A stretch of 64,000 bases of DNA from an uncultured bacterium (GCA_963729625.1 CAVSOU010000008.1:224001-288000); one strand, 5' to 3'; counted from the first letter of the stretch, positions 28,202 through 54,944 are shown. Translations and numbers: made by a program. Notes: generated from the sequence alone by a model not told the origin.

Positions 28202-29485
28202 TCACCACGGTTTATTTGCCTGCGAGCGCGGCGGGATGATGGTGCTGCAGGGCGGCGGCGGCGCGAGTGCAGCCGCATGAGAGCAGAGGGCCAGGCTCAT
28301 CAGGAAGTCATCGTGCCCTTCGCTCGCCGGTACAAAGAAGCGCATCTGCTCGTTGACGCCCAGGTCATACCGCGCCGACTCGATTTCGCGCCGCGCCTGC
28401 CGCCAGGCTTCGCTTCCGTCCTGCCTGTAGAGACGGCAGCGGCCGGTACCAGCCAAGGCCAGCAGCGCGAACCCCAGTCGCGATTTCGACGGCGCGGTGA
28501 AGACAAACTGCTCCACCACCGCGCCCCCGAGGACGCCTTCGAGCCAGGAGGCGACGCCTGCGCCCAGGCCTGTGGCATCCACCACGACCTTTGTGCAGGG
28601 AAAGACGTCGGCCAGCAGGTGGCGAAGCGCATGGTGTTGGGTTGGATGGTCCGCCCCCGACCACTGGTAGTGTTGCACGACCTCCAGCGAAGGCTCGAGC
28701 TCCTCCGTCCAGTGCAGCCGTGCTATCGTGGTCACGGTGCTGTCGCGGCCACGGTCCGCCGCTGCCGGTGCCAGGAGTCCTGGAATTGCCTGAGCGTCCT
28801 GGCCGGCTACGTCTATCCCCGCCACGTAGGTTTCGCCTGCGATGCCCTCGGCCAGTCGCGCGTGTCTGCCTGAGAGCAGCAATGAACGCGTCGCGAGCGA
28901 AAACAGGCGTCCCATCTCCTCGAGCGGCTGCAGGCAGTATTGCGTCTGCACGATCGGATGGTCTGAGCCGAGCCTGGCTATCTCGGCTTCCACGAACATG
29001 CGATAGGCCGGCGAGATTTGTGCCAGCACCTGCCAGTCGTACTCGAAGTGGCGACGTATGCCGTCGCGGTGCTCAAGGGCTAGGTTCACCTGCTTCTGGC
29101 GCTCGAGTGGGTTCGTTGCGTCCCACGCGGTGCCATAGAGCACGATTGGCGCGTTAGTCGAGCTGGCCATGGGGCGGAATTCGCGCTGCACCTTGTCTTC
29201 CTGCAGGTCCTGCGCCTCGTCAAGCTCCAGAAGCACGTCGGCAGTTCCGCCAACGACATGGCTGGCGGGAGCGCCCGAGAGAAAGCGTACGCGGGCGCGG
29301 CCCAGCTCGATCGCATCCTGGCTGGTGCGCACGCAGCCGCGGTTCAGTGGATTGTCAAGCACGCTCAAGAGGCGCTGTCTGCTGATCAGTGCCTGCGGGC
29401 GGAGCGTCGGGGCCGCTTTGACCAGCGTGCCGCCGGTAAACCGGTAGATATTGAGCAGGTACGCTTCGAGCTCCGCTGAAAGCTC
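28202..29485 (-). CDS. Resident large terminase-like gene, 3' part (interrupted by integrated element)
   Basis: Frame open from 29485: ELSAELEAYLL...LELDEAQD (Walker B)...AGIDVAG...HDDFLMSLAL (RNaseH-like nuclease); no own start. Confidence 0.85.
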   Translation of the reverse strand, partial: ELSAELEAYLLNIYRFTGGTLVKAAPTLRPQALISRQRLLSVLDNPLNRGCVRTSQDAIELGRARVRFLSGAPASHVVGGTADVLLELDEAQDLQEDKVQREFRPMASSTNAPIVLYGTAWDATNPLERQKQVNLALEHRDGIRRHFEYDWQVLAQISPAYRMFVEAEIARLGSDHPIVQTQYCLQPLEEMGRLFSLATRSLLLSGRHARLAEGIAGETYVAGIDVAGQDAQAIPGLLAPAAADRGRDSTVTTIARLHWTEELEPSLEVVQHYQWSGADHPTQHHALRHLLADVFPCTKVVVDATGLGAGVASWLEGVLGGAVVEQFVFTAPSKSRLGFALLALAGTGRCRLYRQDGSEAWRQARREIESARYDLGVNEQMRFFVPASEGHDDFLMSLALCSHAAALAPPPPCSTIIPPRSQANKPW

Positions 29486-29516
29486 AATATAGCTGCGTTG
29501 TGTTGTTTATGATATA
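29484..29516. repeat. Left attachment site (core TC plus arm TGTTGTTTATGATATA)
   Basis: 29501-29516 is the exact reverse complement of 44659-44674. Confidence 0.9.
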
Positions 29517-29661
29517 GCGCAGGACTGCCCCACGGGGGGTACGACTTCGCAACGAGCGCTGTTCAGTACTGCTCACGAGCAGGGACCATCGCCCACATGC
29601 AATTCTCGTGCGCCCTGGCGCATCCTAGAGGCTATTGCACAGCGCAATTGTTCACACTATC

Positions 29662-29750
29662 GGGCCGTCCTCGCGCGCGGGGAGAGCGAGTCATCCAGGA
29701 TATGGGAAGCACGGCGACGACTGGGCCGTCCTCGCGCGCGGGGAGAGCGA
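29662..29750. CRISPR. Mini-array: two identical 28-bp type I-E-like repeats, one 33-bp spacer
   Basis: GGGCCGTCCTCGCGCGCGGGGAGAGCGA at 29662-29689 and 29723-29750; 61-bp period; internal hairpin TCCTCG-CGCG-CGGGGA; no cas genes in window. Confidence 0.55.
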
Positions 29751-29805
29751 AGCGCCGGATCTGCTGGGAATCCGGGGCTTGATCGGGCGACGCGCTTATG
29801 GCCGG

Positions 29806-30015
29806 CTAGTCGGGCTCTACCTCGCCGTCGATCACGTAGCTGCGATGGGTGCGGCGGATGTGGTAGACACTGCGAATGACCGCCAGGTCCTTGTCTATCT
29901 GCCGGCTGCTCATGCCGTAGTGCTCCGCCAGCGTCGCGCGGGTCCAGACGCCCGGCTCACGCAGGATGCGATGGGCGATCTGAACGCGGCGCTTGAAGGC
30001 GGACTTGACGCTCAT
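29806..30015 (-). CDS. Small winged-HTH (HTH_11-like) protein
   Basis: TRATLAEHYGMSSRQIDKDLAVI. Confidence 0.75.
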   Translation of the reverse strand: MSVKSAFKRRVQIAHRILREPGVWTRATLAEHYGMSSRQIDKDLAVIRSVYHIRRTHRSYVIDGEVEPD

Positions 30016-30254
30016 CAGCGCAGCTCAACCAGATAGTCATCAACTGCACCGTACTGTCGGTCGGCATTGACGGCGCGGAATGCGCGGTAGTTGTAGGGTC
30101 CCCAGCCCATGACTTCGGTCACGGCGATCTCGCCAACCTGATAGCGGTGGTCGAGATACTCGAGGTCTTGTCCCGTGACCTTGCTCTGCGGTGCGATTCG
30201 GTCGGTTGTCGCGTTGTAGTCGATGTACGCTGCTGCCCTGATATGCTCGTCCAT
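30015..30254 (-). CDS. Small acidic hypothetical protein
   Basis: RBS GAAGGA; 79 aa; stop overlaps next start (TGATG). Confidence 0.65.
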   Translation of the reverse strand: MDEHIRAAAYIDYNATTDRIAPQSKVTGQDLEYLDHRYQVGEIAVTEVMGWGPYNYRAFRAVNADRQYGAVDDYLVELR

Positions 30255-30302
30255 CGTTCTTCCTTCTGCCCGGTTTCGCCGCCGGGCCCGGCACTGCCTT
30301 GG

Positions 30303-30914
30303 TCAGGCTCGCTGGACGCTCCCATTCCGGGACTGAGCATTGAACACCTTCACCAGCTCGGCGATCTCCGCGGCCGCCTCTTCCTGGGTGACGTTTGGCA
30401 CGATGGAGACAGGGCGGCCGAGGGCAGCCTGCAACTTGCCGATCTTGCTCAGTTGCTCCTGGGTGGCCACCCCTGACGGTACAACACTCGGCTTCGGCGC
30501 CGTGTGCGCGGTAGCCGGCGAAGCGCCTATGGCGGGATACGTGGGCATGTCGTCGTCGCCCAGCTCCTCGAGCGCGGCGCCGCCCACGTTCAGGGCGTCG
30601 CGCAGCGCGCGGGCCTTGGCGCGCGTCTCGGCCATGCGGATGTAGTGGGCGGCGACCATCTTGCCGGTGTTCTGCACATTGGCGTCGCCGATGCCGGTGT
30701 AGGTGCCGGCCTCGGTCGTCACTTCGGCCCAGACAATGGCCGTCCAGGCGTTGACCTCGGTCGGCGCCTGCTCGAGCTGCGTCCGGATGGCCTTCAGGCC
30801 CGAGCGGTGCGCCAGGTCGAGCAGGCCGGCATAGAGCACGAACTCTTTGCCGGCACGCTCGATGACGTAGCGGTGGTCGATCTTCTTGATCGTGCTGATG
30901 GCGTCGCCGTTCAT
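30303..30914 (-). CDS. Putative single-strand annealing protein (Rad52/Sak-like)
   Basis: GKEFVLYAGLLDLAH...YTGIGDA...IRMAETRAKARALRDALNVG; C-terminal ATQEQLSKI tail; family assignment from recall. Confidence 0.55.
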   Translation of the reverse strand: MNGDAISTIKKIDHRYVIERAGKEFVLYAGLLDLAHRSGLKAIRTQLEQAPTEVNAWTAIVWAEVTTEAGTYTGIGDANVQNTGKMVAAHYIRMAETRAKARALRDALNVGGAALEELGDDDMPTYPAIGASPATAHTAPKPSVVPSGVATQEQLSKIGKLQAALGRPVSIVPNVTQEEAAAEIAELVKVFNAQSRNGSVQRA

Positions 30915-30916
30915 GG

Positions 30917-31141
30917 CTACCACCGTCCCTTTGCCGCCAGAGCGTGATACTCGTAGGTGTGGCCATCGTAGGAGTAGTCTAGATCGTGCCGGCGCGCCTC
31001 CGCGAACTGGGCCAGTGTCTCGCGTGCCAAGCAGTCCGGGCAGTGCATGCGTTCCTGCCAGGTGTCGCCGTCCGTGTACGGGTAGCGCTTCTGGCAACGC
31101 AAACACGTTGCCGTGGGATGCCAGGCTTCCTGTGCTACCAT
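30917..31141 (-). CDS. Small Zn-ribbon protein
   Basis: CLRC...CPDC; RBS GAAAGGA. Confidence 0.6.
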   Translation of the reverse strand: MVAQEAWHPTATCLRCQKRYPYTDGDTWQERMHCPDCLARETLAQFAEARRHDLDYSYDGHTYEYHALAAKGRW

Positions 31142-31242
31142 AGTGTCTGAGTCCTTTCGACTCGGTGAGCGGCTCCCTAACTTTTCCAGGGTGGGGGAGC
31201 CGTTCGGCGTTTCAGGAGAGCTCATGCGCTCTGCCTGCTACC

Positions 31243-31318
31243 ATTATCTCATAGTGCGCGCGCACTTACAATAGTGTAAACGCACTATCTTGAAAGTGCG
31301 CGCGCGGTGTGCTATCGT
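31243..31318. promoter_or_regulatory. Divergent promoters with three AGTG-N6-CACT-type operators
   Basis: Plus: TTGAAA(31290)-17-TATCGT with TGn. Minus: TTGTAA(31271)-17-GATAAT with TGn. Boxes at 31253-31266, 31271-31288, 31295-31308 (last degenerate). Confidence 0.7.
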
Positions 31319-31337
31319 AGTCTCAGGAGGAGTTGCG

Positions 31338-31553
31338 ATGATGGCCGCAGCAAAGCGCGAGATGCCGCGTGGCGGGAAGCGCGCCAGGAAGGGTACCGGC
31401 CGCGCGCGCTCGAGCGGGCTAAACTTGCTCTTGAGCCCCGACCACAAGGCGTGTTTGACCGCTCTCGCCGAGGCGGAAGGCATCACCCGCACCGCCCTCA
31501 TCGAGCGCTGGATCGACGAGCACAGCTCCCAGCCCACGCAGGCGCCCCAGTAG
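31338..31553 (+). CDS. Ribbon-helix-helix (CopG-like) regulator
   Basis: RBS AGGAGG; LNLLLSPDHKACLTALAEAEGITRTALIERWI. Confidence 0.75.
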   Translation: MMAAAKREMPRGGKRARKGTGRARSSGLNLLLSPDHKACLTALAEAEGITRTALIERWIDEHSSQPTQAPQ

Positions 31554-31759
31554 GCGAATTTCGCGCTAGGGCCTCGAAAGCGGCCTCAGCGTGCCCTAGG
31601 ACCAACGTCACCGGTTCCTATGGTACACCAGGCGTCTGAGTAGCCCGCCTGCGAGGCATTCCTGGTTGCCCGCATTTGCTATTCGCCCTCGTACGGATCT
31701 TCGGCCTCCACGGATGAAGCCGCGCCTGCCACGACTTGGTGTGCGTGCTACGCGATAGG

Positions 31760-32242
31760 TCAGGGCAGAGGCATCTTGGTTTGACCGAGTACCTGAGGCG
31801 CCTCGATCCGAATCCCCGGTATCTGAACCTTACTCAGATCATCGTCCCAGGTTAGCAGAACATCGCAGCGAGCCCGCAAAGCGCAGGCTATATGCAAGGC
31901 ATCGAAAGGCCTTACACCGTAGTTTCGGCATAACCTGTTGGCGTCGATGCCTATCTGCATGTCCACCACAATCCATTGGAACAGCCGTCGCTGAAAGAAG
32001 GCGATCAGCGTATCGTCGTCAGTGCTCAACACGAGGCCAGGACTATACTTATGGACTTCGGCGACAACCGGTCCAGAGATCCAGATATCAAATAGTTTGT
32101 CCTCAGCCTGCGTGAATATGTGTTGCGCGACAGCACCACGATCCACGAGACCGACCTTCTCACCCTTTACCCATCCAATGTAGACACAGGAGTCCAGAAA
32201 TGGGCGCCTATAAGGGCCGGTCAGCGCGCTGTTAGGCGTCAC
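31760..32242 (-). CDS. PIN-domain nuclease (toxin)
   Basis: FLDSCVYIGW...VVAEV...RPFDALHIACA...LLTWDDDL. Confidence 0.85.
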   Translation of the reverse strand: MTPNSALTGPYRRPFLDSCVYIGWVKGEKVGLVDRGAVAQHIFTQAEDKLFDIWISGPVVAEVHKYSPGLVLSTDDDTLIAFFQRRLFQWIVVDMQIGIDANRLCRNYGVRPFDALHIACALRARCDVLLTWDDDLSKVQIPGIRIEAPQVLGQTKMPLP

Positions 32243-33023
32243 GCATCCTCCGTATGTACTCCACAGACTCAAGGCCGCCGGTGAAGTCAGGATCGCTGCC
32301 CCAGAGCGACGCCGTCGTCGGCAGATCGCCGTCAGCGGCGAATGCCGTGAGGCGTTCGGCTTTCACGCGCACCGGCTCGTGCTCCGAATTGATAGCTACC
32401 ATCCCGATCACAGAGACTCTGCCGCCGAGAGCCGACTTAGCCTGCTCGAGTAAGTCTGTTGAAGAGAAGTCACAGGTGACTGCCTTGTGCGTCCAACTGT
32501 GGTATATGGTGAATCTTGGCTTCTGATGGACCGAGATGGCCTCAAGCGTGCCGTCGATTGAACCCAATGCTATGTGACGCACTTGCAACAACTGGGCAGC
32601 GTGCACCGTCGCCTGAGCTGTCAGGTAGAGCTCACGCGTATCGTCCTCATTTACCAGCACGATGCCTGTGACACCCTCCCGGCCGATCAAGCGAAGCACA
32701 CGCTGACAGCGCCGTATGCCAGTCTCGCGGAGATAGGGTGGAGTCATCGCTTGCTGTTCCAGACGCGCAACAGACGTGACGTAAGTCGCGATCACCTCCG
32801 GGCCACAGTCTCGGTCCGCAAGACGAGTCCGAGGACTGATCGCCAGTTCGGCGCTCCCTTCCCGCAGCCCAGCGACGACCCAATCAAGGCTACCCTTCTT
32901 CTCGCCGGAAATAGCTGTGTCGAGTTCCTCCAGAATGGCTTGTGTCTCCCGTAGCGCTGTTATTAGCGCATCCAGCGTGATATTGCCGAGGTCACCCTGG
33001 AGTCGAACCCGCAAGGTCGCCAT
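32232..33023 (-). CDS. Hypothetical protein coupled to PIN gene (candidate antitoxin)
   Basis: 263 aa, overlaps PIN start; C-terminal beta-rich region and DFTGGLESVEYIRRMR tail. Confidence 0.65.
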   Translation of the reverse strand: MATLRVRLQGDLGNITLDALITALRETQAILEELDTAISGEKKGSLDWVVAGLREGSAELAISPRTRLADRDCGPEVIATYVTSVARLEQQAMTPPYLRETGIRRCQRVLRLIGREGVTGIVLVNEDDTRELYLTAQATVHAAQLLQVRHIALGSIDGTLEAISVHQKPRFTIYHSWTHKAVTCDFSSTDLLEQAKSALGGRVSVIGMVAINSEHEPVRVKAERLTAFAADGDLPTTASLWGSDPDFTGGLESVEYIRRMRDA

Positions 33024-33242
33024 GTTAGTGCACCTCTAAATCCCTGCTGTCGTGCTGGATATCGCGTACATGCTAGCACACGCCACATGACCCGGTGCGC
33101 GAAAACAGGCCCGGCGATGGCCACCCAGCCGGCCCAAGACATGTGATCACCGCCCATACAGGGCGCGCATAGCCTGATGCCCGGGCAGTCGCAGTTCGGC
33201 GGGTGGCACCGGCGGAAGGCAACAGCGTGTGGGGTTGCAAAG

Positions 33243-33932
33243 CTACCGATATTTCGGCAGTTTTCCGCCGTCGCGCTCCCGGTGCCAGTCGTGCTCGCCG
33301 CTGCCCATGCCGCGCCACGGGCTCGGCCGGGTGTTCTCCCGCGGTGCCACGGGCAGCACGGGCGGATACTGCTCGCCGAACCAGCAGGCCAGGGCCACGG
33401 ACAGCACCAGATCGTCGTGGATGTTCTCCCGCCAGGCCTCGTAACTGTCGTTCCCGGTGGCGATGTTCACCTTGACCTTGAAGTTGAGCAGCTCCTGCAC
33501 CAGCGTTCCGGCCAGCGTCAGGCCCTCCGCGACCTTCAGCCGCCGGCCCTGGTAGAGCGCCACCAGCGTACTGGCCAGCTCGCGCTTGGGCACCTTCAGG
33601 TCGTAGGAGTTCTCCCGGTTCACCTCGGTCCCGCCGGTAATGGTGATGGCCCGGGGACGCACGCCGGCCGCGCTGAACATGTCGCAGATGGCGGCGCCGA
33701 CTCCGGTCCGGTCGATCACCAGCGGCGTGCTGCGCGTCAGGGGCGGGCGGTCGAGCAGGCCGATCACCTGCTCCACGATGACCGGGTAGCGCGTGCCCAG
33801 CGCCGGCCGCTCGAGGTAGCGCAGGTGATAGTCGTACTCGGCGCGACGGTCGCCTTCGACCTGTTCCACGATGCTGATCGCCGTGTAGTCCTGTGCCTGC
33901 CCCAGGTCCACGCCCACGATATAGTCGCTCAT
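33243..33932 (-). CDS. Terminase large subunit, nuclease (RNaseH-like) domain as separate gene
   Basis: VGVDLGQAQDYTAI, VIDRTGVG, HDDLVLSVALACW; own RBS AAGGAG. Confidence 0.85.
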   Translation of the reverse strand: MSDYIVGVDLGQAQDYTAISIVEQVEGDRRAEYDYHLRYLERPALGTRYPVIVEQVIGLLDRPPLTRSTPLVIDRTGVGAAICDMFSAAGVRPRAITITGGTEVNRENSYDLKVPKRELASTLVALYQGRRLKVAEGLTLAGTLVQELLNFKVKVNIATGNDSYEAWRENIHDDLVLSVALACWFGEQYPPVLPVAPRENTRPSPWRGMGSGEHDWHRERDGGKLPKYR

Positions 33933-33942
33933 TCTGGCTCCT

Positions 33943-34725
33943 TCATCCAGCCCGAAGGCTGGGGCCCTCGGCGAACAGCGGCGCCACGTCCGGCGTCATG
34001 CTGGCCATCACATCGTCATAGCCGAAGAGCTGGTCGACGGTCTCGGAGAACGCGCAGCAGTACTCTTGCTGGTACCACCAGGTGCCGAGCGCCCGCCGCT
34101 CCTCCTCCAGGAAGGCCGACGGGATGCGCGGGCACTGGCTCGCCGGCACCTCGTACCGCTCCCATCCGCTGCCCTCGGTCCACTCCTGGTGGAAGAAACC
34201 GCGCTTGCCGAACGGTGTGCTCAAGCACACGAGCCGCCCGCCGCTGACTGCCAGCATCGGCCTGCACGAATAGTACAATTCGTCCAGACAGCGTGCCGCT
34301 TCGTCGACGGCGAGCAGCGCCACGCCAGAATAGCCGCGCACTGTCTGCTCGGTGCCCGGCAGGCTGACGATGCGCGAGCCGTTCTCGAGCGTCAGTGTCA
34401 GCGCGGTCTCACTTTCGGCCGGCACCGGACGCCCGAGAGCGCGGTACACGCCGATGCACTTCTTGAACAGCTCCGAAGATTGCCGCAGGCTGGGCGAAAG
34501 CAGCAGCACCAGCGCGCCGGGTGTGTAGAGCGCGGTGTGCACTGCCAGCACGCTGGTAATGCTGGACTTACCGCTTTGCCGGCAGCAGTTCAGCAGCAAG
34601 CGCGGCGCGGTCGAGCGCAATACATCCTCTTGCCAGGCGTCCAGGTTCTCGAGGCCGACGGCGCGCGCCAGCCTGCACGGGTCGAGGGCCATAGCCAGGT
34701 CGCCGGCGAAGCTAGCCGTGTCCAT
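33943..34725 (-). CDS. Terminase large subunit, ATPase domain as separate gene
   Basis: DAWQED, CCRQSGKS (Walker A), VDEAA (Walker B), LSTPFGKRGFF. Confidence 0.9.
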   Translation of the reverse strand: MDTASFAGDLAMALDPCRLARAVGLENLDAWQEDVLRSTAPRLLLNCCRQSGKSSITSVLAVHTALYTPGALVLLLSPSLRQSSELFKKCIGVYRALGRPVPAESETALTLTLENGSRIVSLPGTEQTVRGYSGVALLAVDEAARCLDELYYSCRPMLAVSGGRLVCLSTPFGKRGFFHQEWTEGSGWERYEVPASQCPRIPSAFLEEERRALGTWWYQQEYCCAFSETVDQLFGYDDVMASMTPDVAPLFAEGPSLRAG

Positions 34726-35260
34726 TGGAGGCGTCCAGGCGCGCGAGGGCTCCCGCTACGGCGAATTTGGCCTCTGGGTGGGGCTGCAGGGCGTGCAGCA
34801 GCGTCGTGCGAACCTGGAGCCATTCGGGCGACAGCATCACCGCGACCTTGGGCGACTCGTCCAGTTCTCCCAGCAGCTTGGCCTGCAGCTCGATCTGCCG
34901 TTGAATACGGTCAATCGCGCGCAAGGCCGTCCCGGGGTCCCCGGCCTCACCGGCATCCATCAGGATTTGCAGGGTGGCGCTGTTGATGGCCTTCAGTTGT
35001 TGCACGACGTCGAGGGCCTGGCGGGCCTCTCTGGCTTCCTGACGCACTGCCTCTGCGGCAGTCTCAGCCGCGTGCACATCACGCTGCCGCAGTCCTTCGC
35101 CGAGCAGCGCGGGCAAGTGCTCGCTCTTGTGCCTGAAGAGGGCCGTCGCCGACATTCCGTAACATAGCGAAACACTCCGTAACGTCTGGCCTGCGACCAG
35201 CGCCCGGTCAATGTTGGCTCGCCCTTCATGCGTGCATACGCTACAGTTTCGTCCAGGCAT
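34712..35260 (-). CDS. Putative terminase small subunit (Zn/HTH N-terminus)
   Basis: CSVCTH...LRSVSLCYGMSATALFRHKSEHL HTH plus helical region; overlaps TerL ATPase start. Confidence 0.6.
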   Translation of the reverse strand: MPGRNCSVCTHEGRANIDRALVAGQTLRSVSLCYGMSATALFRHKSEHLPALLGEGLRQRDVHAAETAAEAVRQEAREARQALDVVQQLKAINSATLQILMDAGEAGDPGTALRAIDRIQRQIELQAKLLGELDESPKVAVMLSPEWLQVRTTLLHALQPHPEAKFAVAGALARLDASNGHG

Positions 35261-35263
35261 CGG

Positions 35264-36295
35264 TCAGCCCTCTTTCTCCGGCTCCTCCGGCAATAGCCCC
35301 ATCGCGCGCAGGAACGGGCGCGAGCGGGCCGCCAGCCGCATGCAGGCCGCGTACGTCATGACGTTCACGTGATCACCTATCAGGCTGCTCTGCGTTATCG
35401 AGCGGAAGGGGTTGCCGGTATCGGGTGCTTCCATCTGGGCCGTGAACTCCAGCGGCTGGCCGAACACCAGGCGGTTCAGGTTGGCGCGGTTGGGCCTAAA
35501 GCCCGGCACGCCCTCCACGCCGCAGCAGCAACTGGCATCGCTCAGACTGCGCAGGCGGTTCTCGCCGCAGAAGAAGGCGAGCCCGCACTCGTGCGCGGCC
35601 GCCTTGATCGCCGTGTACTCGGCCCGCAGTGCCGCTACGGGGTAGCACCAGTCCGCGCCCACGCGGATCATGCCCGGGCGCTTGCGGCCCCGCTTCATAC
35701 CCTGGATCTCCACGCCGTACACCCCGCGCGCCGCGTAGAGCGGCAGGGCGGCCCGCACGGACTCCACCAGGCCCAGGGAATAGGGGGAAATGCGCACGAT
35801 CACCCGTTTACAGGTTTCGGCCAGCTTAGGCAGCATGTCCAGCCGCTCCGCGAAGCGCGGGGCGCCTGGCTCCAGGGCGTCGTACTGCGGCGCTACCATG
35901 CTCACCTGGGCTACGGCGTTGCAGCGCCGCAGCAGGGCCAGGTACTCCGGCGTGGCGACGAGCTTGCCCTTGGTGCTGAAGGCGAACGGGTAGCCCGTGG
36001 CGGCGAACAATTCCAGCACGGCGTAGCTGGCCCGGTGTTTCTTCTCCAGCGGCTGAAAGGGGTCGCTCATGCCGCCCCAGTGCAGGGGTATGTCCCAATC
36101 ACACCAGCGACAGTCCGCAGTCCGCTTGCCCTGGATGAAGCGGTCTACCGCCGCCACCGACTCCAGAGCCTTCACGTTGTGGATTGAGCCGTTGCGTCGA
36201 GTGAAGCAATACGTGCAGCCATGCGAACAGCCCGCATAGGTGTCGAACCGAACCGGAAGATCGCAGAGCACCAGCTGGGAGCCGCAGCTAGGCAA
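35264..36295 (-). CDS. Radical SAM protein (SPL/photolyase-like clade)
   Basis: DTYAGCSHGCTYCF CxxxCxxC, GGMSDPFQPLE; TTG start after GAGGAGG. Confidence 0.85.
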   Translation of the reverse strand: MPSCGSQLVLCDLPVRFDTYAGCSHGCTYCFTRRNGSIHNVKALESVAAVDRFIQGKRTADCRWCDWDIPLHWGGMSDPFQPLEKKHRASYAVLELFAATGYPFAFSTKGKLVATPEYLALLRRCNAVAQVSMVAPQYDALEPGAPRFAERLDMLPKLAETCKRVIVRISPYSLGLVESVRAALPLYAARGVYGVEIQGMKRGRKRPGMIRVGADWCYPVAALRAEYTAIKAAAHECGLAFFCGENRLRSLSDASCCCGVEGVPGFRPNRANLNRLVFGQPLEFTAQMEAPDTGNPFRSITQSSLIGDHVNVMTYAACMRLAARSRPFLRAMGLLPEEPEKEG

Positions 36296-36923: not shown

Positions 36924-36929
36924 GCGATG

Positions 36930-37412: not shown

Positions 37413-37413
37413 C

Positions 37414-37617
37414 TCATCCTCCATACAACACGCGCTTGGCGTCAGATAGGGCATCCGAAGTCGCCTTGGCCCGCTGCCTGGCTGCCAGGAGTTCGGGGGA
37501 GTCGGCGGCCACGACGCCAATCTGGGCCAGATACTCGACGTCTCGAAGTTCCAATGCGGCGGAGCGTGCACGTCCCTGTGCGTCGGCGACGCTCTGCAAA
37601 GCTTGGTCATGGTTCAC
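37414..37617 (-). CDS. Small helical hypothetical protein
   Basis: RBS AAGGAG plus GTG; LRDVEYLAQIGVVAADSPEL. Confidence 0.65.
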   Translation of the reverse strand: MNHDQALQSVADAQGRARSAALELRDVEYLAQIGVVAADSPELLAARQRAKATSDALSDAKRVLYGG

Positions 37618-37725
37618 ATCTCTCTCCTTTCGTTCAAGGGTGGTCGGGCCTGTGGTGGTGAGGACAGGCCCGGCCTCAAGGTGGCCGCCTGGCGGTGGAG
37701 GGCGCACCGGACGGCCGGGTAAATG

Positions 37726-37953
37726 CTAGAACTCTGGCCGCGTCTTCGCGAGCAAGTTGTCGGCAAGCTTGCGGGTCTCGGTATAGCTCTTGCCAAGCAC
37801 CTTGGCCACTTTACGCAGGTCGTTTTCACAGGCGGCCATTGCGTTTACCAGCATCACGTCCTCATCCGTGGTGGCCACGGCGCGGACGGCTTCGGACTCG
37901 GCGAACTTGCGCAGGATGACGCGGTCTCGAATAGCGCTGGCTGTTTTGTCCAT
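37726..37953 (-). CDS. Small hypothetical protein (possible HTH)
   Basis: RBS AAGGAG; NDLRKVAKVLGKSYTETRK. Confidence 0.55.
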   Translation of the reverse strand: MDKTASAIRDRVILRKFAESEAVRAVATTDEDVMLVNAMAACENDLRKVAKVLGKSYTETRKLADNLLAKTRPEF

Positions 37954-37956
37954 GTC

Positions 37957-38178
37957 CTACTCCTTATCGGGGAATCCTATGTTCCCTGCTATGATCGGGC
38001 GGGGTCCTAGCGCGCGGTTGCGGGGTCCCAACGCGGCCACCGTGCGCCGCAGTTCGTCGGACGTGGTGCCCAGCTCCGCCGCCGCGTTCTTCCAGTTCCC
38101 ATTGCAGTGTTCGAGGGCGTCGAGCATCTCGTTCTCGGCACCGGTTGCGCTCTGCCGGATATGATTGGGCCATTTCAT
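37957..38178 (-). CDS. Fis-like HTH protein
   Basis: LDALEHCNGNWKNAAAELGTTSDELRR. Confidence 0.65.
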   Translation of the reverse strand: MKWPNHIRQSATGAENEMLDALEHCNGNWKNAAAELGTTSDELRRTVAALGPRNRALGPRPIIAGNIGFPDKE

Positions 38179-38234
38179 GGGTGGTTTCCTTTCCTGCTAG
38201 ATGCCTGCCGGCTTTGCCGGTCCCTTCCTCCGCC

Positions 38235-38441
38235 TCACTCCTTTCTCGGGGCTTCATGCAGCAAGCCCAGTCGATGCGCTTTCCTGAGTGCGGCGCGCAG
38301 GTAGCGCTCGGAGCAGCGACAGCGGGCAGCCGCCAGCCGGATAAACTCCCGCTCGTTGTACGGCCAGGGCAACTGTGCGCAATTGCGCACATGCTCACTT
38401 GCGGCGCCGTGTATTCGGTGGTCTACGTTCGCGGTGTTCAT
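38235..38441 (-). CDS. Small hypothetical protein
   Basis: ATG overlaps stop of 38438-38734. Confidence 0.45.
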   Translation of the reverse strand: MNTANVDHRIHGAASEHVRNCAQLPWPYNEREFIRLAAARCRCSERYLRAALRKAHRLGLLHEAPRKE

Positions 38442-38734
38442 CGGACACACGCCAGGCGCGGCACGTTGGCCAGTTCCAGCGCGCGTAGGGCCTGCTCGGC
38501 GCGCCGGCCCTGTAGCACGAGTGTCCGCTCCCAGCCTTTCGGCATGTCGCGCAGCGCAACCGTTACCTTGGGCGCTGGCACCCACGTTCCGTCGTCGCAG
38601 AGCACCTCGCCTTGGCCGGGGAAATAGGCCGCGATACAGGCTCGATTGACGCGGAGCATGCCGAGCGTCACGAACTCCGTTTCCTTCCTGCTTGCTTCTT
38701 TGCGTGTAGCTTTCGCTACGGCTAGGTCGTACAC
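38438..38734 (-). CDS. Hypothetical protein
   Basis: 98-aa ORF co-oriented with element genes. Confidence 0.45.
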   Translation of the reverse strand: MYDLAVAKATRKEASRKETEFVTLGMLRVNRACIAAYFPGQGEVLCDDGTWVPAPKVTVALRDMPKGWERTLVLQGRRAEQALRALELANVPRLACVR

Positions 38735-38894
38735 TTAGTCTGTTCCCTTCACTTCCGCCGCGGCCGGCCAGGGCCACGGCATGCTCATATCCGTCGTGGT
38801 GCGCTCTTTCAGTAGCGCCACCAGCTCGGGTTTTCTGTCCGCCAGCCAATCATGACTCGTCCACTCCTTCACATTTTCATTTCCTATCAGCACG

Positions 38895-38960
38895 ACTTCA
38901 GCACTTCGCGAAGTGCTGAAGTGTGCTGAAGTCCGCTGAAGTCCGCTGAAGTCGCGCTAA
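38895..38960. repeat. Putative replication origin: 28-bp palindrome plus iterons
   Basis: ACTTCAGCACTTCGCGAAGTGCTGAAGT (38895-38922); GCTGAAGT at 38915, 38925, 38935, 38945 (10-bp period); directly downstream of primase-helicase. Confidence 0.7.
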
Positions 38961-38970
38961 AAGCACACAT

Positions 38971-41100
38971 TCAGAAGGGCTCCTCGTCACTGCCTATCGG
39001 GAAGTACCTGGAGTCGCTGCTTTTGGCCTTGCCGGCATGCCGTAACAACCCTGCTTGCTCCAGTCTCAGCAGGCACTTCGCCAGCACGCGATCTTGTTGA
39101 ACACCGCTGCGAACCTTAATGTCGCCGTAGGCCCACCCGGCGGGCGGCGCGTTTTGCAGGGCCTCATAGACGGCTCGCTCGTCAGCGGAAAACGCCGTCT
39201 TCGTCGGGTCCACGCCTTCGCGGTCGTTCGCTACCAGCACGGCTGTCCTGACGTCGCGCGCCGGGTCCGTGAACTCCTTCAGGTGGTAGAAGTGGTTCGG
39301 GAACTGGGGCGAATTGCTCCCGGCAGCCCATGACACGGTGATTGTGCCCAGTTCGTCTTGAGCCAGTTTGATGCACTGCGTCACGCCGGCCAGCAGCACC
39401 GTTGAGCCCCGCATCCGGTCGCTTTCGGCCCAGCCGGAATGATGGACGAGCATGACGTGCGCGCCGGTTTCGCGCCGCAGTATGTCGACGCCTCGAATCA
39501 GGTCCTGCATGTCCTTGGTCGAGTTCTCATCGCCCAGGTTGCACCGGCTTACCGTGTCGAGGGCGAACAGTGCGGGCCGCTGGAGTCCGGCATCAGCGAG
39601 CGTTCCTTGCAAGACCGCCAGCTCCTCTGCGATGGCCACGTAGACAGGCTGCGTGATGACTACCAGGTTGGGAATGGTCTTGCCGCCGTTGTAGGTCGCG
39701 CACCATGCGTACAGGCGGTCGCCGAACTTCCGAACGTTGCCTTCCGCCATGACGATGACCACCGGTCTACCGGTCGTCACGGCCACGCGGCAGGCTATCT
39801 CGACGACCAGGAACGTTTTCCCTTTACCTATTCCTGCAAAGAGCAGGCTTGCTTCGCCCCCCACGACGTATGGCTCGTAGAGATAGGTGGGCTTGAGCTG
39901 AGCGAGCATCTCTTCTATGCTCCAGAACTTGAAGCGACGGGGCGGTTCCATACTCTCTGCGTGAGCGTTGTGCGGAGAATCCGGTAAATACGCTGCATTG
40001 CCGTTCGGACTCGCGTGTACGTCGCGAACGCTCACCATGCCGCCGTACCCTTGCGTGGCCAGCGCCGACGCCGCGCGAGTCCAGTCGCTGCCGTGCTCGA
40101 GTGCTGCGTAGATTTGGAAAGGAGCGTAGCCGCGGCCAGGCTCGAATATCGGCCAAGACGTGCTGAACTGCACAAGGATAGGCACGCCGTTCAGCACGCG
40201 GATATCGCCAGAGCTCCCGTCTCTCGGGTCCTTGCCCGGTCGCGTGATTGTCGCTCCGACCCCGGTGGACCAGGTTCGCACGGTCGCGCCGGCCTTGCGC
40301 AGCAGGGCTTCGACGTCCGCCAAAGACGCTCGCTCGTTGTAGGCGTCCCCGGGTCGTGTGCCGCCGTCGTGGCGGCTCGAACGCCCCGCTCGCCGGACAG
40401 CGGCCGCCTGCGCCGCGTGCAGGAACTCCATGCCCTCATTGAACTCGCCTGCTATCTCGATGAGCAGGTCGCGCTCCTGCAAGGTCACTGTCGGGGGATT
40501 GAGGGGATCGCCCTGCACGACTTCGCAGCCCACCATAGGCCAGAAGATGCCGTAGCCACCGTCACCTCGACTCTCGATCAACGGCTCTCGCTTGACCCTG
40601 GTGGGATCGTCTTCGTCCGGACTGTAGGCTGCCGCGAATACCTGGTTCCCGGATAGCTCGCCCCCGTACCGGATCGGAATATGGAGCCCTCCGGACTTAG
40701 AGCGCCACATAAGCAGGCGCCCATACAGCCCAGGATTCCGCTCTCGCACCCGGTTGCAATAGTGCTCGACGCGCTGGGCATCCTGGCCCTTGAGATCTAT
40801 CTCGAACAGTTCCAGGGCCTCGCCCAGCGGCCTTTGCTTGCCGTAGACGATGGCCGCAACGTCGGCCCCCTGCCCCGGCCAGGCGTCGAATTCTGCCGGC
40901 GTCGCCAGCCGTTCCCGGAATGGAGCCCAGGTCCGCTTCAGCTCGCCCGTTTCCGGGTCGAGCCTGACTGGAAGCGCATCAAAGCGCGGTTGCTTGGTGC
41001 TGGTGCTGGCGGGGAGAATGCTGATATTGGCGGCCAGCAGCTGCGCTGCCATCCGCCAGTTCGGTGGTGTAAGGACGGGACCAGCGGGCGCGGCGCTCAT
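38971..41100 (-). CDS. Bifunctional primase-polymerase fused to AAA/RepA-type helicase
   Basis: SKSGGLHI, IESRGDGGY (prim-pol); AGIGKGKTF, FALDTVSR, VHHSG, MRGST (AAA_25-like); C-terminal wHTH. Confidence 0.85.
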   Translation of the reverse strand: MSAAPAGPVLTPPNWRMAAQLLAANISILPASTSTKQPRFDALPVRLDPETGELKRTWAPFRERLATPAEFDAWPGQGADVAAIVYGKQRPLGEALELFEIDLKGQDAQRVEHYCNRVRERNPGLYGRLLMWRSKSGGLHIPIRYGGELSGNQVFAAAYSPDEDDPTRVKREPLIESRGDGGYGIFWPMVGCEVVQGDPLNPPTVTLQERDLLIEIAGEFNEGMEFLHAAQAAAVRRAGRSSRHDGGTRPGDAYNERASLADVEALLRKAGATVRTWSTGVGATITRPGKDPRDGSSGDIRVLNGVPILVQFSTSWPIFEPGRGYAPFQIYAALEHGSDWTRAASALATQGYGGMVSVRDVHASPNGNAAYLPDSPHNAHAESMEPPRRFKFWSIEEMLAQLKPTYLYEPYVVGGEASLLFAGIGKGKTFLVVEIACRVAVTTGRPVVIVMAEGNVRKFGDRLYAWCATYNGGKTIPNLVVITQPVYVAIAEELAVLQGTLADAGLQRPALFALDTVSRCNLGDENSTKDMQDLIRGVDILRRETGAHVMLVHHSGWAESDRMRGSTVLLAGVTQCIKLAQDELGTITVSWAAGSNSPQFPNHFYHLKEFTDPARDVRTAVLVANDREGVDPTKTAFSADERAVYEALQNAPPAGWAYGDIKVRSGVQQDRVLAKCLLRLEQAGLLRHAGKAKSSDSRYFPIGSDEEPF

Positions 41101-41330
41101 GACCGCATACCCGCGACAGCAAGCGCTCGAGCGATGCGCTGCTCAGCAGGAAGGCTCGTGTCTCCCAGGATCGCGACGGCACGTCGCGCACGATAACCCG
41201 AGAGAAGACAATCACGCTCTCGCAGTAAGCAGGACACCTCGCGCGTCAAGCTGACAATCCGTCGCTCCAAGCAGAGAGCTTCGGCGCTTGCCGCTGTGGT
41301 AGGATTAAGGTTGTGGAGCGGTGCAACCAT
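41097..41330 (-). CDS. Small hypothetical protein
   Basis: RBS GGAGG; stop overlaps primase start. Confidence 0.5.
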   Translation of the reverse strand: MVAPLHNLNPTTAASAEALCLERRIVSLTREVSCLLRERDCLLSGYRARRAVAILGDTSLPAEQRIARALAVAGMRS

Positions 41331-41508
41331 CACCACCTCCACGCTTCCCGCCGCCGGCCTGACTCGCTGGCGGCTTGCTGTCCTGGTGGGAGCGTTCACC
41401 CTGGCGCTTCCGCAGGTTGAGCCAGCCCTCGAAGACGGCCGCTGAGATGTCTTGCAGGGCTGCCTCGGGACTGATGGGCGCGGTGTCGGTTTGCGCAAGC
41501 GCAGCCAT
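41305..41508 (-). CDS. Small hypothetical protein
   Basis: Start overlaps stop of the HTH gene. Confidence 0.5.
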   Translation of the reverse strand: MAALAQTDTAPISPEAALQDISAAVFEGWLNLRKRQGERSHQDSKPPASQAGGGKRGGGDGCTAPQP

Positions 41509-41732
41509 CAGACTGCGGCCTCGTACCGGTGGCCTTCGTCGGGCGTGAGGCCGAGCGCTCGGTCAATTTCGGCTGTCGGAACGAGAATCCTCTTCCCTGC
41601 ACGGATGACACGTACGGGAAACTCGCCCCTCGCGGCCAGCTCATAGCCGGTGCCGGGGCTAATCCCCAGGCGCCGCGATGCCTGCGGAATGCTTTGTGTC
41701 GCGCGTGCTGGCTTTGCGGTAGCGTTCGACAT
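41508..41732 (-). CDS. Excisionase/AlpA-like HTH_17 DNA-binding protein
   Basis: SIPQASRRLGISPGTGYELAARGEFPVRVIRAGKRILVP; RBS AGGAGG. Confidence 0.85.
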   Translation of the reverse strand: MSNATAKPARATQSIPQASRRLGISPGTGYELAARGEFPVRVIRAGKRILVPTAEIDRALGLTPDEGHRYEAAV

Positions 41733-41874
41733 ACGCGCTAACCTCCTTTTCTGGACTGTGCGGTCTTATGCCGCTAAGTCCAATTTAGGCCGGTTTAGGC
41801 GCTATGTATGTACGTATCTCGCGTGACACGGCACTTTCGTACTACGAATATCCGGTGTCACGAGGAAGCGTATA

Positions 41875-42840
41875 TCAGGCGGGAGAGGGTACCGGGTCGT
41901 TCTGGCGAAGCCACTTCTCGGCATAGCGCCGTCGCTCCCGTTCGACCCGTGCTGATTGGGTGTCTGCGAGCTGGCAGTACTTCTTCACGTAGGCGATCCG
42001 TGTTACGCGGGGGTTCTCCGCCACAGCGTCGAGCCAGCCATTATAGAGGCGCACATCCTCTAGGTATTTGTCCTTGCTGACCGTAGTAGGTCGCAGGGTT
42101 TTTGTTCGGTACCGTTCAACCTCCCGGAATGCCCTCGCGAGGTCTTCGCGGAGGTCGTCCACGTCGGCATAGAGGCCGGGAGTCATGAAGATAACCACCT
42201 GCGGATACCCCTGGCGTACGAGGTTCCTGTCGGCGTAGACTTGCCTCGTTAGGTGCAAGGCCGTCTTGGCAACCCTTTTAGGTTTCCCTGCCACTACTAA
42301 GGTTGCCTCGGGAGCTTCTATGTACGCCAACCCTTCGTCTTCGTCACGTGCCGGCGCGTATTCTGCAAGCCATACCTCAACATGCGTATGTGAAGGCGCC
42401 GCGCCTGTCCCGCCGATAGGCAGGAATGGGGGATCCTCGTCGAGGTCAGCAAGCAGTTGCTTCAGAGCAATGTCCCAGGTCTCCCGTATGGCTATATGTA
42501 AGGTGGCCTCGACCATATCCGCTGCTATCGGGGTATACCGCTCGTCGTTCACAATACCCGGGAACTGGGCGGTTATCCGGTACTCTTCCTCCGCGATCCA
42601 CGGGTATTGCGCACTCGTGCCGTTCCGTACAAGGGCCTCCGCAAGGTCGGGACGCAGGTTGGTCGCATCCATAGCACGGCATATCAGCCGCGAGTGCGAC
42701 TCTGCCAGCGCGCGCTGAAGAAGCTGGTATTCACCCAATGCAGTGCCCCAGGCGCGTACAGCACTGAGGGAGTACCGCGGCCTAGCCCACCATTCGGCAG
42801 GCTTTTCATACTTCAGGCGGGATACACTGAAATCAGCCAT
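41875..42840 (-). CDS. Hypothetical protein, possible element regulator
   Basis: 321-aa ORF between integrase and Xis-like gene. Confidence 0.6.
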   Translation of the reverse strand: MADFSVSRLKYEKPAEWWARPRYSLSAVRAWGTALGEYQLLQRALAESHSRLICRAMDATNLRPDLAEALVRNGTSAQYPWIAEEEYRITAQFPGIVNDERYTPIAADMVEATLHIAIRETWDIALKQLLADLDEDPPFLPIGGTGAAPSHTHVEVWLAEYAPARDEDEGLAYIEAPEATLVVAGKPKRVAKTALHLTRQVYADRNLVRQGYPQVVIFMTPGLYADVDDLREDLARAFREVERYRTKTLRPTTVSKDKYLEDVRLYNGWLDAVAENPRVTRIAYVKKYCQLADTQSARVERERRRYAEKWLRQNDPVPSPA

Positions 42841-42909
42841 CGCTCGAGCCCTCCACGCTCGCGATGCGGGCCGGTTCTGTCGCAAGCAGACCGGCCTACC
42901 TACTTGATC

Positions 42910-44623
42910 TTACTTCTTGGCGACCAGCCCGGCACGTTTCCGCGCCATGTAGCGCCTCATCGCCAGCGCATGGAGTTGCTTGGACGTCAGATGTTCCGGT
43001 GACTCGACGTTGGGGCCAACGATGACTTGTTCCGCGTCGATGAGTACCTGCAGCGGCTTAGTCCATACGACCTCGGCGCGCAGCCACGTTGACCGCAGTT
43101 CAGGCACGCGCTCAACGATGGTCGCGCTTTCGACGAACATCAGGGCGAGGTTTCTAAGCTCCCGCTCCATGTCATTGGCGACGTACTGGTCGATGAGCCT
43201 CGTCAAGGCGGACTTTCTCGAACTCCGCATGGAGCGCTTTCGCGTCTGCCGGCGTCGGCGCGGGTGCCGGCAGCACAGCGAGTTCACGCTCAATACTGAC
43301 TATCTTGTCGCTCAGCTCGTTACTGCCGCGGCGATAGGCGGCCACTTCCTGCGGCGTCGGGGTATCGCCCGCCAGCAGTGTGAAGTTCTTGATATGCCGC
43401 TGGAGTTCGTCTTTCGCTACGTCGAGCCGCTTCCGGAGCAGGGGGCGCGGATCTACTGTCGGTGTAACCGTGCTCGCCGCCCGCGATAGGTCCCACGACT
43501 TGAACTGGATCCGCTTGATCTGGGCAAGTACCGCCTCATGCGCAAAGCTTGCCACGTAGTGTGACGGCTTGCAGACGGCCTCGCCGTTGGCGTGCCGTAC
43601 GCAGACATAGGTGGGCCGGTGCTTGCTGGCAGGATCTCGCACGCGGCTAATGACCATGCGGCCGCCGCACGTGCAGCGCAGCAGTCCAGCACACAGGGGA
43701 ACAGGCTGGTCGGTCAGTCTGCCGCGGAACTGCCCCGTGCGTGCATCCGTCAGCCGACGCTGCACCTGATCGAACGTCGCTTGGTCGATGAGCGCTTCAT
43801 GCTCGGCTGGAACCGTGAACTCGCTTCCATCCTCGCATCGCTCGAAGCGACCGGACGGCTGCGCGTTATAGCGAAGGTGTCCAACATAGACCGGATTGCG
43901 CAGAATGTAGTTGAGCTTATCTGTCCTCCACGTCAGGCCCTTGGGCGACTTCGGGCAAGCCGGATCGTTATTGGCCCAGCGTGCCAGCTCGAGTAATGAC
44001 TGACCAGACGCATACCGCGTGTACAGCTCAGTGACGAACGACGCTGCAGGCTCGTTGCGGGTCAGTGTGCCGGCTTGGTAGCGCCCGCCGCCGGTCCGCT
44101 CCTGATAGCGCAGGACATAGCCGAAGGGGACGATGCCGTGATGCTTGCCTTCCCGCACTGAACGCTCCAGACTGGGGCGGACGCGGCGTGCGAGCTCCCG
44201 GCTATATTGCTCGGCCATGCCGCTCCGTACGAAGCGCATGATACCAGGCTCCTCGGTCCCCTCTCGGACGGAGATGAGCTTGACTCCCAGATTCTCCATC
44301 TCGCGGCAGCGGACGATCAGCTCGCCGCCATCGCGCCCGAGCCGGTCGAGTTGGTGCACGATGACAGCGCCGATGGTCCCGCTTCGCACGGACGCCAAAA
44401 GTCGCTGGTAGCCATGACGAGTGAGCTTGTGGCCGCTCTCGAAATCGCTTTCCATCTGCGCGACGTCGAGCCCGTGCTCGGCTGCGTAGCTCCTGATTGC
44501 CTCCTCCTGAAGTTCTGGGCTGTAACCGTCGCTCTGCTTGAGCGTGCTGACTCTGATATAGCCTGCTGCTCTTGTCGCGACCGCCGGGAGTGCCGTCAAG
44601 CGTCGTGCTGGTGCTGTCATCAC
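42910..44623 (-). CDS. Large serine recombinase; probable frameshift near 43215
   Basis: GYIRVSTLKQ, HQLDRLGRD, PFGY, ILRNPVYVG, LLRCTCGGRM Zn ribbon, coiled coil; ORF 43172-44623 appears to continue in the 42910-43293 frame. Confidence 0.92.
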
Positions 44624-44658
44624 GTCCTCCTTCGGGGACTCTCTCCCCTTAAGAGAAT

Positions 44659-44692
44659 TATATCATAAACAACACTAACAGGTAAATAGTTC
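44659..44692. repeat. Right attachment site (arm TATATCATAAACAACA plus core TC)
   Basis: Inverted partner of 29501-29516; overlaps a minus-strand TGnTATAAT element upstream of the integrase. Confidence 0.9.
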
Positions 44693-44878
44693 GTTCTTAC
44701 CCATCTGTCTGGCCATCATCACGGTAAGCGTGTCTCCCTTGCGGGAGAGCACCGCCCTGACGATGGCGCGAGCGATCTCCGCCTGGTAGGGCCGGAGCGG
44801 CCTCTTTACCACGGACTCGCTAAAGCGCACGACGTCGTCCAGCAAGACTTCGACTGATGAGGGTGTCGCGGCAGACAC
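44691..44878 (-). CDS. Resident large terminase-like gene, 5' part (interrupted)
   Basis: RBS AAGGAGG plus GTG; LRPYQAEIA (Q motif), MMARQMGKN (Walker A), then element sequence and stop. Confidence 0.85.
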
Positions 44879-46095: not shown

Positions 46096-46105
46096 GGTGT
46101 TCCTC

Positions 46106-48473: not shown

Positions 48474-48479
48474 CCGTCG

Positions 48480-52927: not shown

Positions 52928-52940
52928 CCGCTCACCCCCC

Positions 52941-54785: not shown

Positions 54786-54800
54786 GCCTCGCCTCCCCTC

Positions 54801-54942: not shown

Positions 54943-54944
54943 TG

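Follow-up and report, generated by a model that had tools for sequence, protein, structure and literature searches.

A gene for the large subunit of a phage terminase (TerL) in a soil bacterium of the phylum Chloroflexota, called G000 here, is split by a mobile element of 15.2 kb. The locus was studied in a window of 64,000 nucleotides (GCA_963729625.1, CAVSOU010000008.1:224001-288000), i.e. the whole stretch of DNA that was analysed and from whose first letter all positions are counted; the assembly comprises 5.41 Mb in 21 contigs and is 87 % complete. Both junction sequences and the alignment with homologues bear out that TerL is interrupted at its Walker A motif, as a preliminary description of the window had stated. 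The interruption is probably due to a site-specific and evolutionarily recent insertion, made by a large serine recombinase (LSR) in a conserved cluster of particle genes of prophage origin, and not to a fixed, evolved switch. As part of this reading, TerL would be a conserved landing site which has been used repeatedly by LSR elements. The preliminary description had left the choice between a recent insertion and a reversible switch controlling DNA packaging; the first half of this alternative fares better, whereas the second finds no support. The integrative element would have arrived through LSR-catalysed recombination between attP and attB, the latter being the Walker A codons of TerL in the resident cluster, where the DNA of the gene is best conserved. 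As crossover point we assume the dinucleotide GA (TC on the opposite strand), so that TerL would be severed between GKN and E, and excision by the LSR together with a recombination directionality factor (RDF) would rebuild the gene exactly. The split itself is real, and judging from its two ends a clean reversal could in principle occur.

The N-terminal piece of TerL (44691-44878, minus strand) consists of 62 codons plus the GA of a split GAG codon and ends with the Walker A residues MARQMGKN; the reading frame from 44878 runs through ATG GGT AAG AAC GA into AT-rich sequence. It is picked up again at 29485 with GA-G CTT TCA GCG GAG and continues to a stop at 28202. This C-terminal piece (28202-29485, minus strand) encodes 427 amino acids (aa) beginning with ELSAELEAYLL and comprising Walker B and an RNaseH-like nuclease domain. 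Between the two core copies lie the 15,205 bp of the element (29486-44690). The minus strand reads ...ATGGGTAAGAAC-GA-ACTATTTACC... from 44702 to 44681 and ...GCTATATT-GA-GCTTTCAGCGG... from 29493 to 29473, which confirms the proposed shared dinucleotide (TC on the plus, GA on the minus strand) at 44691-44692 in attL, the same position as in a relative described below, and at 29484-29485 in attR. The arm of attP proximal to the LSR gene covers 44659-44690 and the distal one 29486-29516. Both contain an inverted repeat, at 44659-44675 and 29500-29516, which is 100 % complementary as had been claimed but 17 nt long instead of the 16 given before, and which starts 14 (29500-29516) and 15 nt (44659-44675) away from the core. 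It is the sole perfect inverted pair of the region among the 25 pairs listed of 47 found. Furthermore, the two element ends have the only copies of this 17-mer in the whole genome of 5.41 Mb; the same word read backwards as a control does not occur at all. Thus attL and attR have a 2-bp core in common and attP is an imperfect inverted repeat, as is typical of LSR elements.

The two pieces of TerL fit together without a gap, overlap, missing or duplicated residue. In a protein search with the C-terminal piece 8,000 candidates were scored, of which 2,287 reached E ≤ 0.001; the nearest homologues of full length have 488-493 aa and are 70-74 % identical, and the named ones are proteins from metagenome-assembled genomes of Chloroflexota. 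In an alignment of 13 sequences chosen from the top of this search list (A1), ten intact homologues (482-505 aa, 50-66 % identical to the N-terminal piece) cross the junction as MARQxGKN-ELSA or QTSA. The intact proteins read TVMMARQMGKN-ELSAxxEAYLLN, and the N-terminal piece stops at N where the C-terminal piece opens at E. The joined protein of 489 aa (62 plus 427) is therefore colinear with single-chain homologues of 488-489 aa across the junction, which was the point on which the earlier proposal could have failed, and both halves are undecayed open frames.

In a second alignment (A2; 38 full-length homologues picked from 120 listed) the following residues of the motifs which had been noted in the joined protein are invariant: Y31 and Q32 of the Q motif, R57, Q58, G60, K61 and N62 of Walker A, E149, D151 and E152 of Walker B, and the nuclease residues D287, D365, H453, D454 and D455. 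Walker A ends with GKN and not with GKS/T. The pattern [AS]RQxGK[NSTQ] is present in 111 of 123 collected proteins, all 111 motifs listed being GKN; the 12 without it comprise the LSR, fragments and proteins with a variant first residue. The pieces from the window themselves matched no Pfam family and only weak TerL families of PHROGs (E 1e-4 and 1e-3); therefore intact natural homologues were used for the identification of the fold. The A2 profile matches the nuclease domains of the TerL proteins of Thermus phage G20c/P74-26 (E about 1e-3). An AlphaFold2 model of the intact homologue P0006 (mean predicted local distance difference test, pLDDT, 89.2) was matched by Foldseek over both domains with the terminases of HK97 (E 1.6e-17), T4 (gp17), D6E, Sf6 and T7. 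These matches support the identification of the split gene as TerL, and according to the model the family has the TerL fold, an ATPase with Walker A and B followed by a C-terminal RNaseH-like nuclease.

The recombinase gene of the element (P0002; 43172-44623, minus strand) starts 68 nt from the junction and encodes 483 aa with a Resolvase domain (PF00239, E 4e-27, residues 19-160), a Recombinase domain (PF07508, E 5e-18) and a zinc ribbon (PF13408, E 3e-6). Its best PHROG is the integrase family phrog_95 (E 1e-75). Residues 22-27 are Y-I-R-V-S-T, which we take to be the nucleophile motif. In an AlphaFold2 model of the homologue P0125, two long antiparallel helices at 393-449 form a coiled-coil, and P0002 aligns through this region. 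The domains, the inverted arms and the comparison with the relative G001 support the earlier suggestion that the insert is an LSR element whose ends are att-like and have a core of 2 bp. However, the assembled gene contains a frameshift. The alignment of P0002 with the G001 recombinase covers residues 1-475 of the latter at 57 % identity, and the tail lies in the +1 frame (42910-43293, minus strand), where residues 30-125 align with residues 475-571 of the same protein at 58 % identity. The frameshift is near codon 473 and causes the early end; the two frames meet near 43205-43210. A conserved C-terminal domain of about 100 aa, which is out of frame in G000, is in frame in seven of seven relatives (A3; all found at E ≤ 1e-100, 543-580 aa, 42-58 % identical). 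In the P0125 model, which rests on a shallow alignment of nine rows (pLDDT 72), this domain is predicted to fold into helices and a beta-hairpin with a block pLDDT of about 80-90. With its recombinase gene frameshifted, the element may be stuck in G000 and TerL may therefore be dead.

A protein of 482 aa (P0124) which is identical to the shortened LSR is recorded on a contig of 15,197 nt, within 8 nt of the 15,205 bp of the element. No identical record of the gene at the far end of the element appeared in the protein search (best 59 %), and the contig is not claimed to be a free element. In the phylum sample of 401 genomes the LSR clade was found in G000 and G001 only, with one copy inside TerL in each. 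A third copy in G001 (C9:431048-432524) is decayed, with stops and changes of frame, and is not adjacent to a TerL piece; upstream of it TC is followed by ACTATTGC, the start of the proximal arm, which suggests that the clade uses at least one other target. Scans for the LSR gave ten loci in genome contigs, all 23-29 % identical, and three in viral contigs with 28-29 % identity.

A parallel insertion exists in G001, a genome of the same genus, in which TerL is cut at the identical dinucleotide by an element of 16.7 kb. Its N-terminal piece is found at C9:1104811-1104996, its C-terminal piece starts at 1121715, and the junctions read ...GGTAAGAAC-GA-AATATAG... and ...AATAGT-GA-GCTGTCGG.... The LSR of this element has 581 aa, is 57 % identical to that of G000 and adjoins the C-terminal piece, i.e. 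the other element end, on the opposite strand. According to blastn the two inserts have nothing in common beyond the LSR region and one match of 49 nt; the G001 cargo encodes tape-measure-like, AAA_25 and winged-helix proteins and is without terminase genes. Written outward from the core, the proximal arm begins with ACTATT and the distal arm with AATATAG in both genomes. If the arms of both sites are put in one order, G000 has GA as its core and G001 has TC. Experiments with Bxb1 and phiC31 reportedly showed that the central dinucleotide controls the polarity of serine integrases. The sites are stated to synapse in either alignment and to give products only if the central dinucleotides are parallel (PMC3783163). 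Under this rule the opposite orientation of the G001 element would follow from its attP core being the reverse complement, and the reversal of core and orientation lends independent support to GA/TC as the crossover. Since the orientations are opposite and the cargo is unrelated, the insertions in G000 and G001 are regarded as independent events and not as an inherited arrangement, and no common regulatory design is apparent.

It is extremely improbable that a chimeric join during assembly placed an unrelated 15-kb contig inside TerL. The 21 contigs, the completeness of 87 % and the lack of a contig of this strain across the junctions could speak for such an artefact. However, both junctions are located at the same dinucleotide of one codon, the 17-nt inverted arms are unique in the genome, and the independent genome G001 shows the same architecture at the same base.

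Two further genomes of the genus, G003 and G004, have a TerL which is uninterrupted at the attachment site, and the insertion is present, as independent events, in two of the four TerL-holding genomes of the genus. The intact TerL of G004 is distributed over two unmerged contigs (end of C359, start of C304) which overlap by about 140 nt at the attachment site; this could reflect mixed forms in the sample or a plain assembly break. A second site of the same TerL family is used in the distant genome G144, where two co-directional pieces lie 20.6 kb apart (C1:4458531-4480655) and the break is near residue 175 in the conserved motif region ...PMAATTNA|T(T)VMYGTAW. An LSR of 769 aa adjoins the N-terminal piece, and the defence-like cargo comprises CHAT-NACHT-TPR, AAA, DUF6414 and relaxase-like genes (a relaxase fragment). 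The survey of split genes covered the 150 matches listed for the phylum sample, with 20 further ones beyond these. A match in G015 starting at residue 54 was rejected as a split gene, as the contig ends there. Further partial matches occur in G328, G373, G146, G267, G274, G387 and G392, and some of them look like adjacent frames or contig ends.

The TerL family is found in 137 of the 401 genomes of the phylum sample (94 of 322 high-quality ones) and in 16 of 21 genomes of the class sample. Two unpublished genomes, G018 and G055, are counted here, but none of the individual claims depends on them. The GKN-type gene is usually present in one copy per genome, and in some families it occurs in nine of nine and 25 of 29 members. 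In three genomes of 1.4-1.5 Mb, all of one genus, TerL is flanked by the host genes YqeY and PheST and accompanied by a portal remnant, a Mor-like gene and a small gene upstream; part of one of these copies is deleted. The TerL of G008 has no recognised phage structural gene in its surroundings up to a distance of about 19 kb in both directions.

The target itself belongs to a cluster of phage-like particle genes upstream of TerL (45069-64000, minus strand) which extends past the window. It includes a capsid gene (60032-62458, minus strand; Phage_capsid_4, E 1e-42), a SU10-adaptor-like gene (51084-52184, minus strand) and GDSL/tail-fibre-like genes, followed past the window by genes for a GH25 lysozyme and a portal of the SPP1 type. 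Genes for an integrase, a repressor or replication were not recognised in the cluster between the flanking host genes. G001 has a cluster of the same genes in the same order with the same host flanks, namely a sedolisin at one end and, at the other, a permease and a protein of 525 aa. Ratios of nonsynonymous to synonymous substitutions (dN/dS) between G000 and G001 were computed with an own Nei-Gojobori script from the best tblastn segment of each gene. They amount to 0.14 for the C-terminal piece of TerL (dS 1.0), 0.15 for the portal and 0.28-0.65 for the other cluster genes (dS 0.43-0.90), compared to 0.14-0.35 for five flanking host genes (dS 0.52-1.0). These low values argue for purifying selection on the cluster during most of the period after the two species diverged. 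The conservation of the cluster fits a domestication, but two closely related prophages at one site would fit as well. A gene for a DinB-like Y-family polymerase (46106-47908, minus strand) within the cluster has an IMS domain, stays below the cut-offs of the NCBIfam models for Pol IV and is without a counterpart in the syntenic G001 cluster.

The capsid gene of G001 is interrupted near residue 737, where it contains an insertion of 47.5 kb (C9:1045427-1092993) with 16-nt terminal inverted repeats, which start with TGT and have one mismatch, and a 5-bp direct repeat. Its ends resemble those of Tn7- or Mu-like transposons, so that it appears to be transposon-like, and no LSR was found in it. 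Its cargo includes FtsK/SpoIIIE, SbcCD-like and AAA_15 proteins and a RuvB-like AAA protein of 1,700 aa. Moreover, the tblastn matches of four structural genes of G001 are split over reading frames, while TerL, portal and host flanks are in one piece; together with the capsid insertion this makes the G001 cluster look like a decaying target. In G004 different DNA is found downstream of TerL. Host genes near the locus in G000 encode a serpin (E 4e-106), an endonuclease of the Uma2 family and, directly downstream of TerL, a peptidase of the pro-kumamolisin/sedolisin type (14255-15658, plus strand; 15665-16285, minus strand; 25867-28014, minus strand).

All clear genes of the 15.2-kb element are encoded on the minus strand. 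The LSR gene is followed by genes for a HTH_17/excisionase-family, AlpA-like DNA-binding protein (41508-41732), a primase/helicase (38971-41100; AAA_25 and PHROG families of DNA polymerases/primases), a ParB-N-like protein with weak PHROG matches (36288-36923) and a radical SAM protein (35264-36373; under the Pfam cut-off, PA0069/Rv2578c-like region). Next come a protein of 182 aa (34712-35260), which in relatives is always located 5' of the two-gene TerL and is a candidate for a small terminase subunit (TerS) by position only, and the element's own TerL in two separate genes, an ATPase (33943-34725; phrog_7579, E 2e-58) and a nuclease (33243-33932; phrog_27743, E 5e-44, and Terminase_6C, E 6.5e-4, under the Pfam cut-off). 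A PIN-domain protein (31760-32272) is annotated at the level of Pfam. The boundary between ATPase and nuclease reads TGA-AGGAGCCAGA-ATG with AGGAG 6 nt before the ATG of the nuclease, and is by these signals an ordinary gene boundary with a predicted ribosome-binding site and not a frameshift. A PADLOC run on 15 element reading frames gave no defence families. Capsid, portal or tail genes were not recognised in the element with Pfam, PHROGs, NCBIfam and PADLOC, which leave about ten reading frames unannotated, and one of 263 aa has matches in the ESM Atlas to unnamed clusters only.

The ATPase occurs in 12 of the 401 genomes of the phylum sample including G000, and in eight of the 14 matches listed, that of G000 and those of seven other genomes, it is a separate open frame of 267-339 aa. 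All three genes, i.e. the 182-aa protein, the ATPase and the nuclease, were matched in G098, G084 and G045. In G098 they belong to a block of about 10 kb with a tyrosine integrase, HTH_17, a D5-type primase-helicase, two small reading frames, ATPase and nuclease. Judged by its genes, the block is laid out like a phage satellite whose integration module can be exchanged. The element of G000 likewise looks like a phage satellite with its own TerS-like gene and a two-gene TerL.

Such a content invites a coupling of satellite and helper, in which the element would block the packaging of the helper by sitting in its TerL and would fill helper capsids by means of its own TerS and TerL, or in which the helper would package only after excision. 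This coupling is considered unlikely. Integrase, AlpA-like helix-turn-helix (HTH) protein, primase-helicase and a complete packaging module without a recognised capsid, portal or tail gene agree with it, as does the relative in G098, in which the layout recurs together with a tyrosine integrase. Moreover, no particle genes other than those of the interrupted cluster lie in the neighbourhood. However, the G001 element with its related LSR at the same site carries other cargo and lacks terminase genes, so that the site appears to be chosen by the LSR module and not as part of a strategy of the satellite. In addition, the block of G098 (C12) is on a different contig from the TerL-family gene of that genome (C4). 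Comparison of the element's TerL halves with the cluster TerL profile by hhalign gave probabilities of 1.7 % and 19 %, a similarity at the level of motifs only and no sign of a common portal-docking lineage. Hidden structural genes are possible among the several unannotated reading frames.

A wider version of this idea takes the cluster for a domesticated system of this Chloroflexota genus resembling gene transfer agents (GTAs), whose TerL serves satellite-like LSR elements as a control point by which particle formation is tied to their own transfer. An element in the Walker A codons would keep the resident motor off until it is excised, or would substitute its own TerS and two-gene TerL. As particle producers lyse, the principle by which intervening elements operate in sporulation and heterocyst genes would here be transferred to a phage-derived particle system. 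A satellite tied in this way to the terminase of a domesticated cluster, with intervening-element logic in lysing cells, gains some footing from the conservation of the cluster; as a whole we judge the proposal unlikely.

Whether the insertion is ever reversed was addressed with metagenome reads, among which the best run holds a 0.13 share of the words of the window, so that only metagenomes with small shares were available. Run X1 contains this strain at 100 % identity, with contigs of 180-262 nt on the C-terminal piece of TerL, the element and the N-terminal flank, and none of its contigs spans either junction. No empty site or circle of this strain was present among the metagenome contigs searched, which speaks neither for nor against excision. 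In run X2 a single contig of 256 nt (depth 2.4) joins 29479 to 44688. With 14 mismatches in 170 nt (about 92 % identity) it is attributed to the intact gene of a relative and not to excision in G000. Other joined contigs had sides of only 20-23 nt and were set aside as noise. A metagenome scan with degenerate B-arm and P-arm sequences gave four loci, which are AT-rich, without similarity to TerL or LSR, and were put down to chance.

The reversible half of the earlier proposal would correspond to a regulated switch like that of skin in sigK or SPbeta in spsM, in which a germ-line element is excised only in lysing, particle-making cells and thereby licenses packaging through the rebuilt TerL. 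Precedents for such intervening elements are known (PMC4191935; PMC5025042; PMC5595907; PMC5499854). An exact excision would indeed restore the reading frame from two intact halves, the cluster occupies the same chromosomal place in both species without recognised integrase or replication genes, and cells that make particles would be terminal, which they share with the known examples. Nevertheless, we regard the switch as quite improbable. The insertions of G000 and G001 are independent and opposite in orientation with unrelated cargo, so that no arrangement was inherited across the lineage, and in two sister species, G003 and G004, TerL is intact. The tail of the G000 recombinase is out of frame, no RDF was found, neither a joined form nor a circle of this strain occurs in the contigs, and the G001 cluster appears to be decaying with its 47.5-kb capsid insertion and the structural-gene matches split over frames.

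Several observations weigh against a simple recent insertion. Both halves of TerL are fully open in two species and have a dN/dS of 0.14 although each genome holds an insertion, which a selected reversible arrangement would predict in the same way. The out-of-frame tail of the LSR is as conserved (58 %) as its body (57 %), and being no more diverged it points to a frameshift that is either very recent or an assembly error; the frameshift could thus be an error of the assembly instead of a real mutation. The G000 LSR gene is co-directional with the cluster operon and directly downstream of this late operon, a position which may tie its expression to particle production. Among the genes of the element no RDF was identified; the HTH_17/excisionase-family protein alone stands out, and since a like protein stands beside a tyrosine integrase in G098 it is not specific for the LSR. 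No sign that the recombination ever ran in reverse at this locus was seen among the contigs searched. An insertion by the LSR, site-specific and recent, is still preferred.

With this insertion a phage terminase gene joins the coding sequences which serve elements with serine integrases as attachment sites. Among the matches listed, one TerL family has been used repeatedly, at two sites by three independent elements. Word searches of the literature, which give no proof of absence, found neither an LSR element in a terminase gene nor a GTA in Chloroflexi described. If excision were regulated, this would be the first known case of a gene for particle production with an intervening element. G000 and G001 also supply candidate sets of attP, attB and LSR from an under-sampled phylum. 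Worth separate study are the satellite-like elements with a complete terminase whose TerL is encoded by two genes, and the TerL family itself, which is present in about one third of the sampled Chloroflexota genomes, partly in a domesticated-looking cluster.

Elements with serine integrases inside open reading frames include A118-like phages in comK, SPbeta in spsM (SprA), skin in sigK (SpoIVCA/CD1231) and gin in gerE. The element of G000 resembles them in an LSR with Resolvase, Recombinase and zinc-ribbon domains which adjoins one att site, in the insertion into a coding sequence at a 2-bp core, in an exact excision that would restore the reading frame, and in an attP that is an imperfect palindrome of about 60 bp. 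In contrast to them, the target is a phage terminase in a prophage-derived cluster and not a developmental gene of the host, the G000 recombinase is frameshifted, no RDF was identified, and regulated excision was not seen in the contigs searched.

Phage-inducible chromosomal islands and P4-type satellites have a comparable size of 10-15 kb and a comparable equipment of integrase, AlpA-like HTH protein, primase-helicase and packaging genes without recognised capsid or tail genes; their patchy distribution is mirrored by the 12 of 401 genomes. Unlike these satellites, the element has a whole terminase, TerS-like gene plus separate ATPase and nuclease, and not TerS alone, it sits inside a phage gene, and its link to a helper is suggested by gene content alone. 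As to GTAs and domesticated prophages, the cluster from portal to TerL differs from them in being known from its genes alone, in the different DNA downstream of TerL in G004, in the disrupted copy of G001 and in distant genomes whose TerL is accompanied only by a small upstream gene or a portal remnant. It is like them in lacking recognised integrase, repressor and replication genes, in having the same host flanks in two species, and in a dN/dS of 0.14-0.65 with dS values in the range of the flanking host genes. Finally, the G000/G001 pair is a natural illustration of how a reverse-complemented 2-bp core would flip the orientation of integration. It differs from the known cases of polarity control by the central dinucleotide in being a natural pair of elements in two species, deduced solely from their DNA, and agrees with them in a homologous pair of attP sites with a reverse-complemented core, which are integrated in opposite orientations in the same attB.

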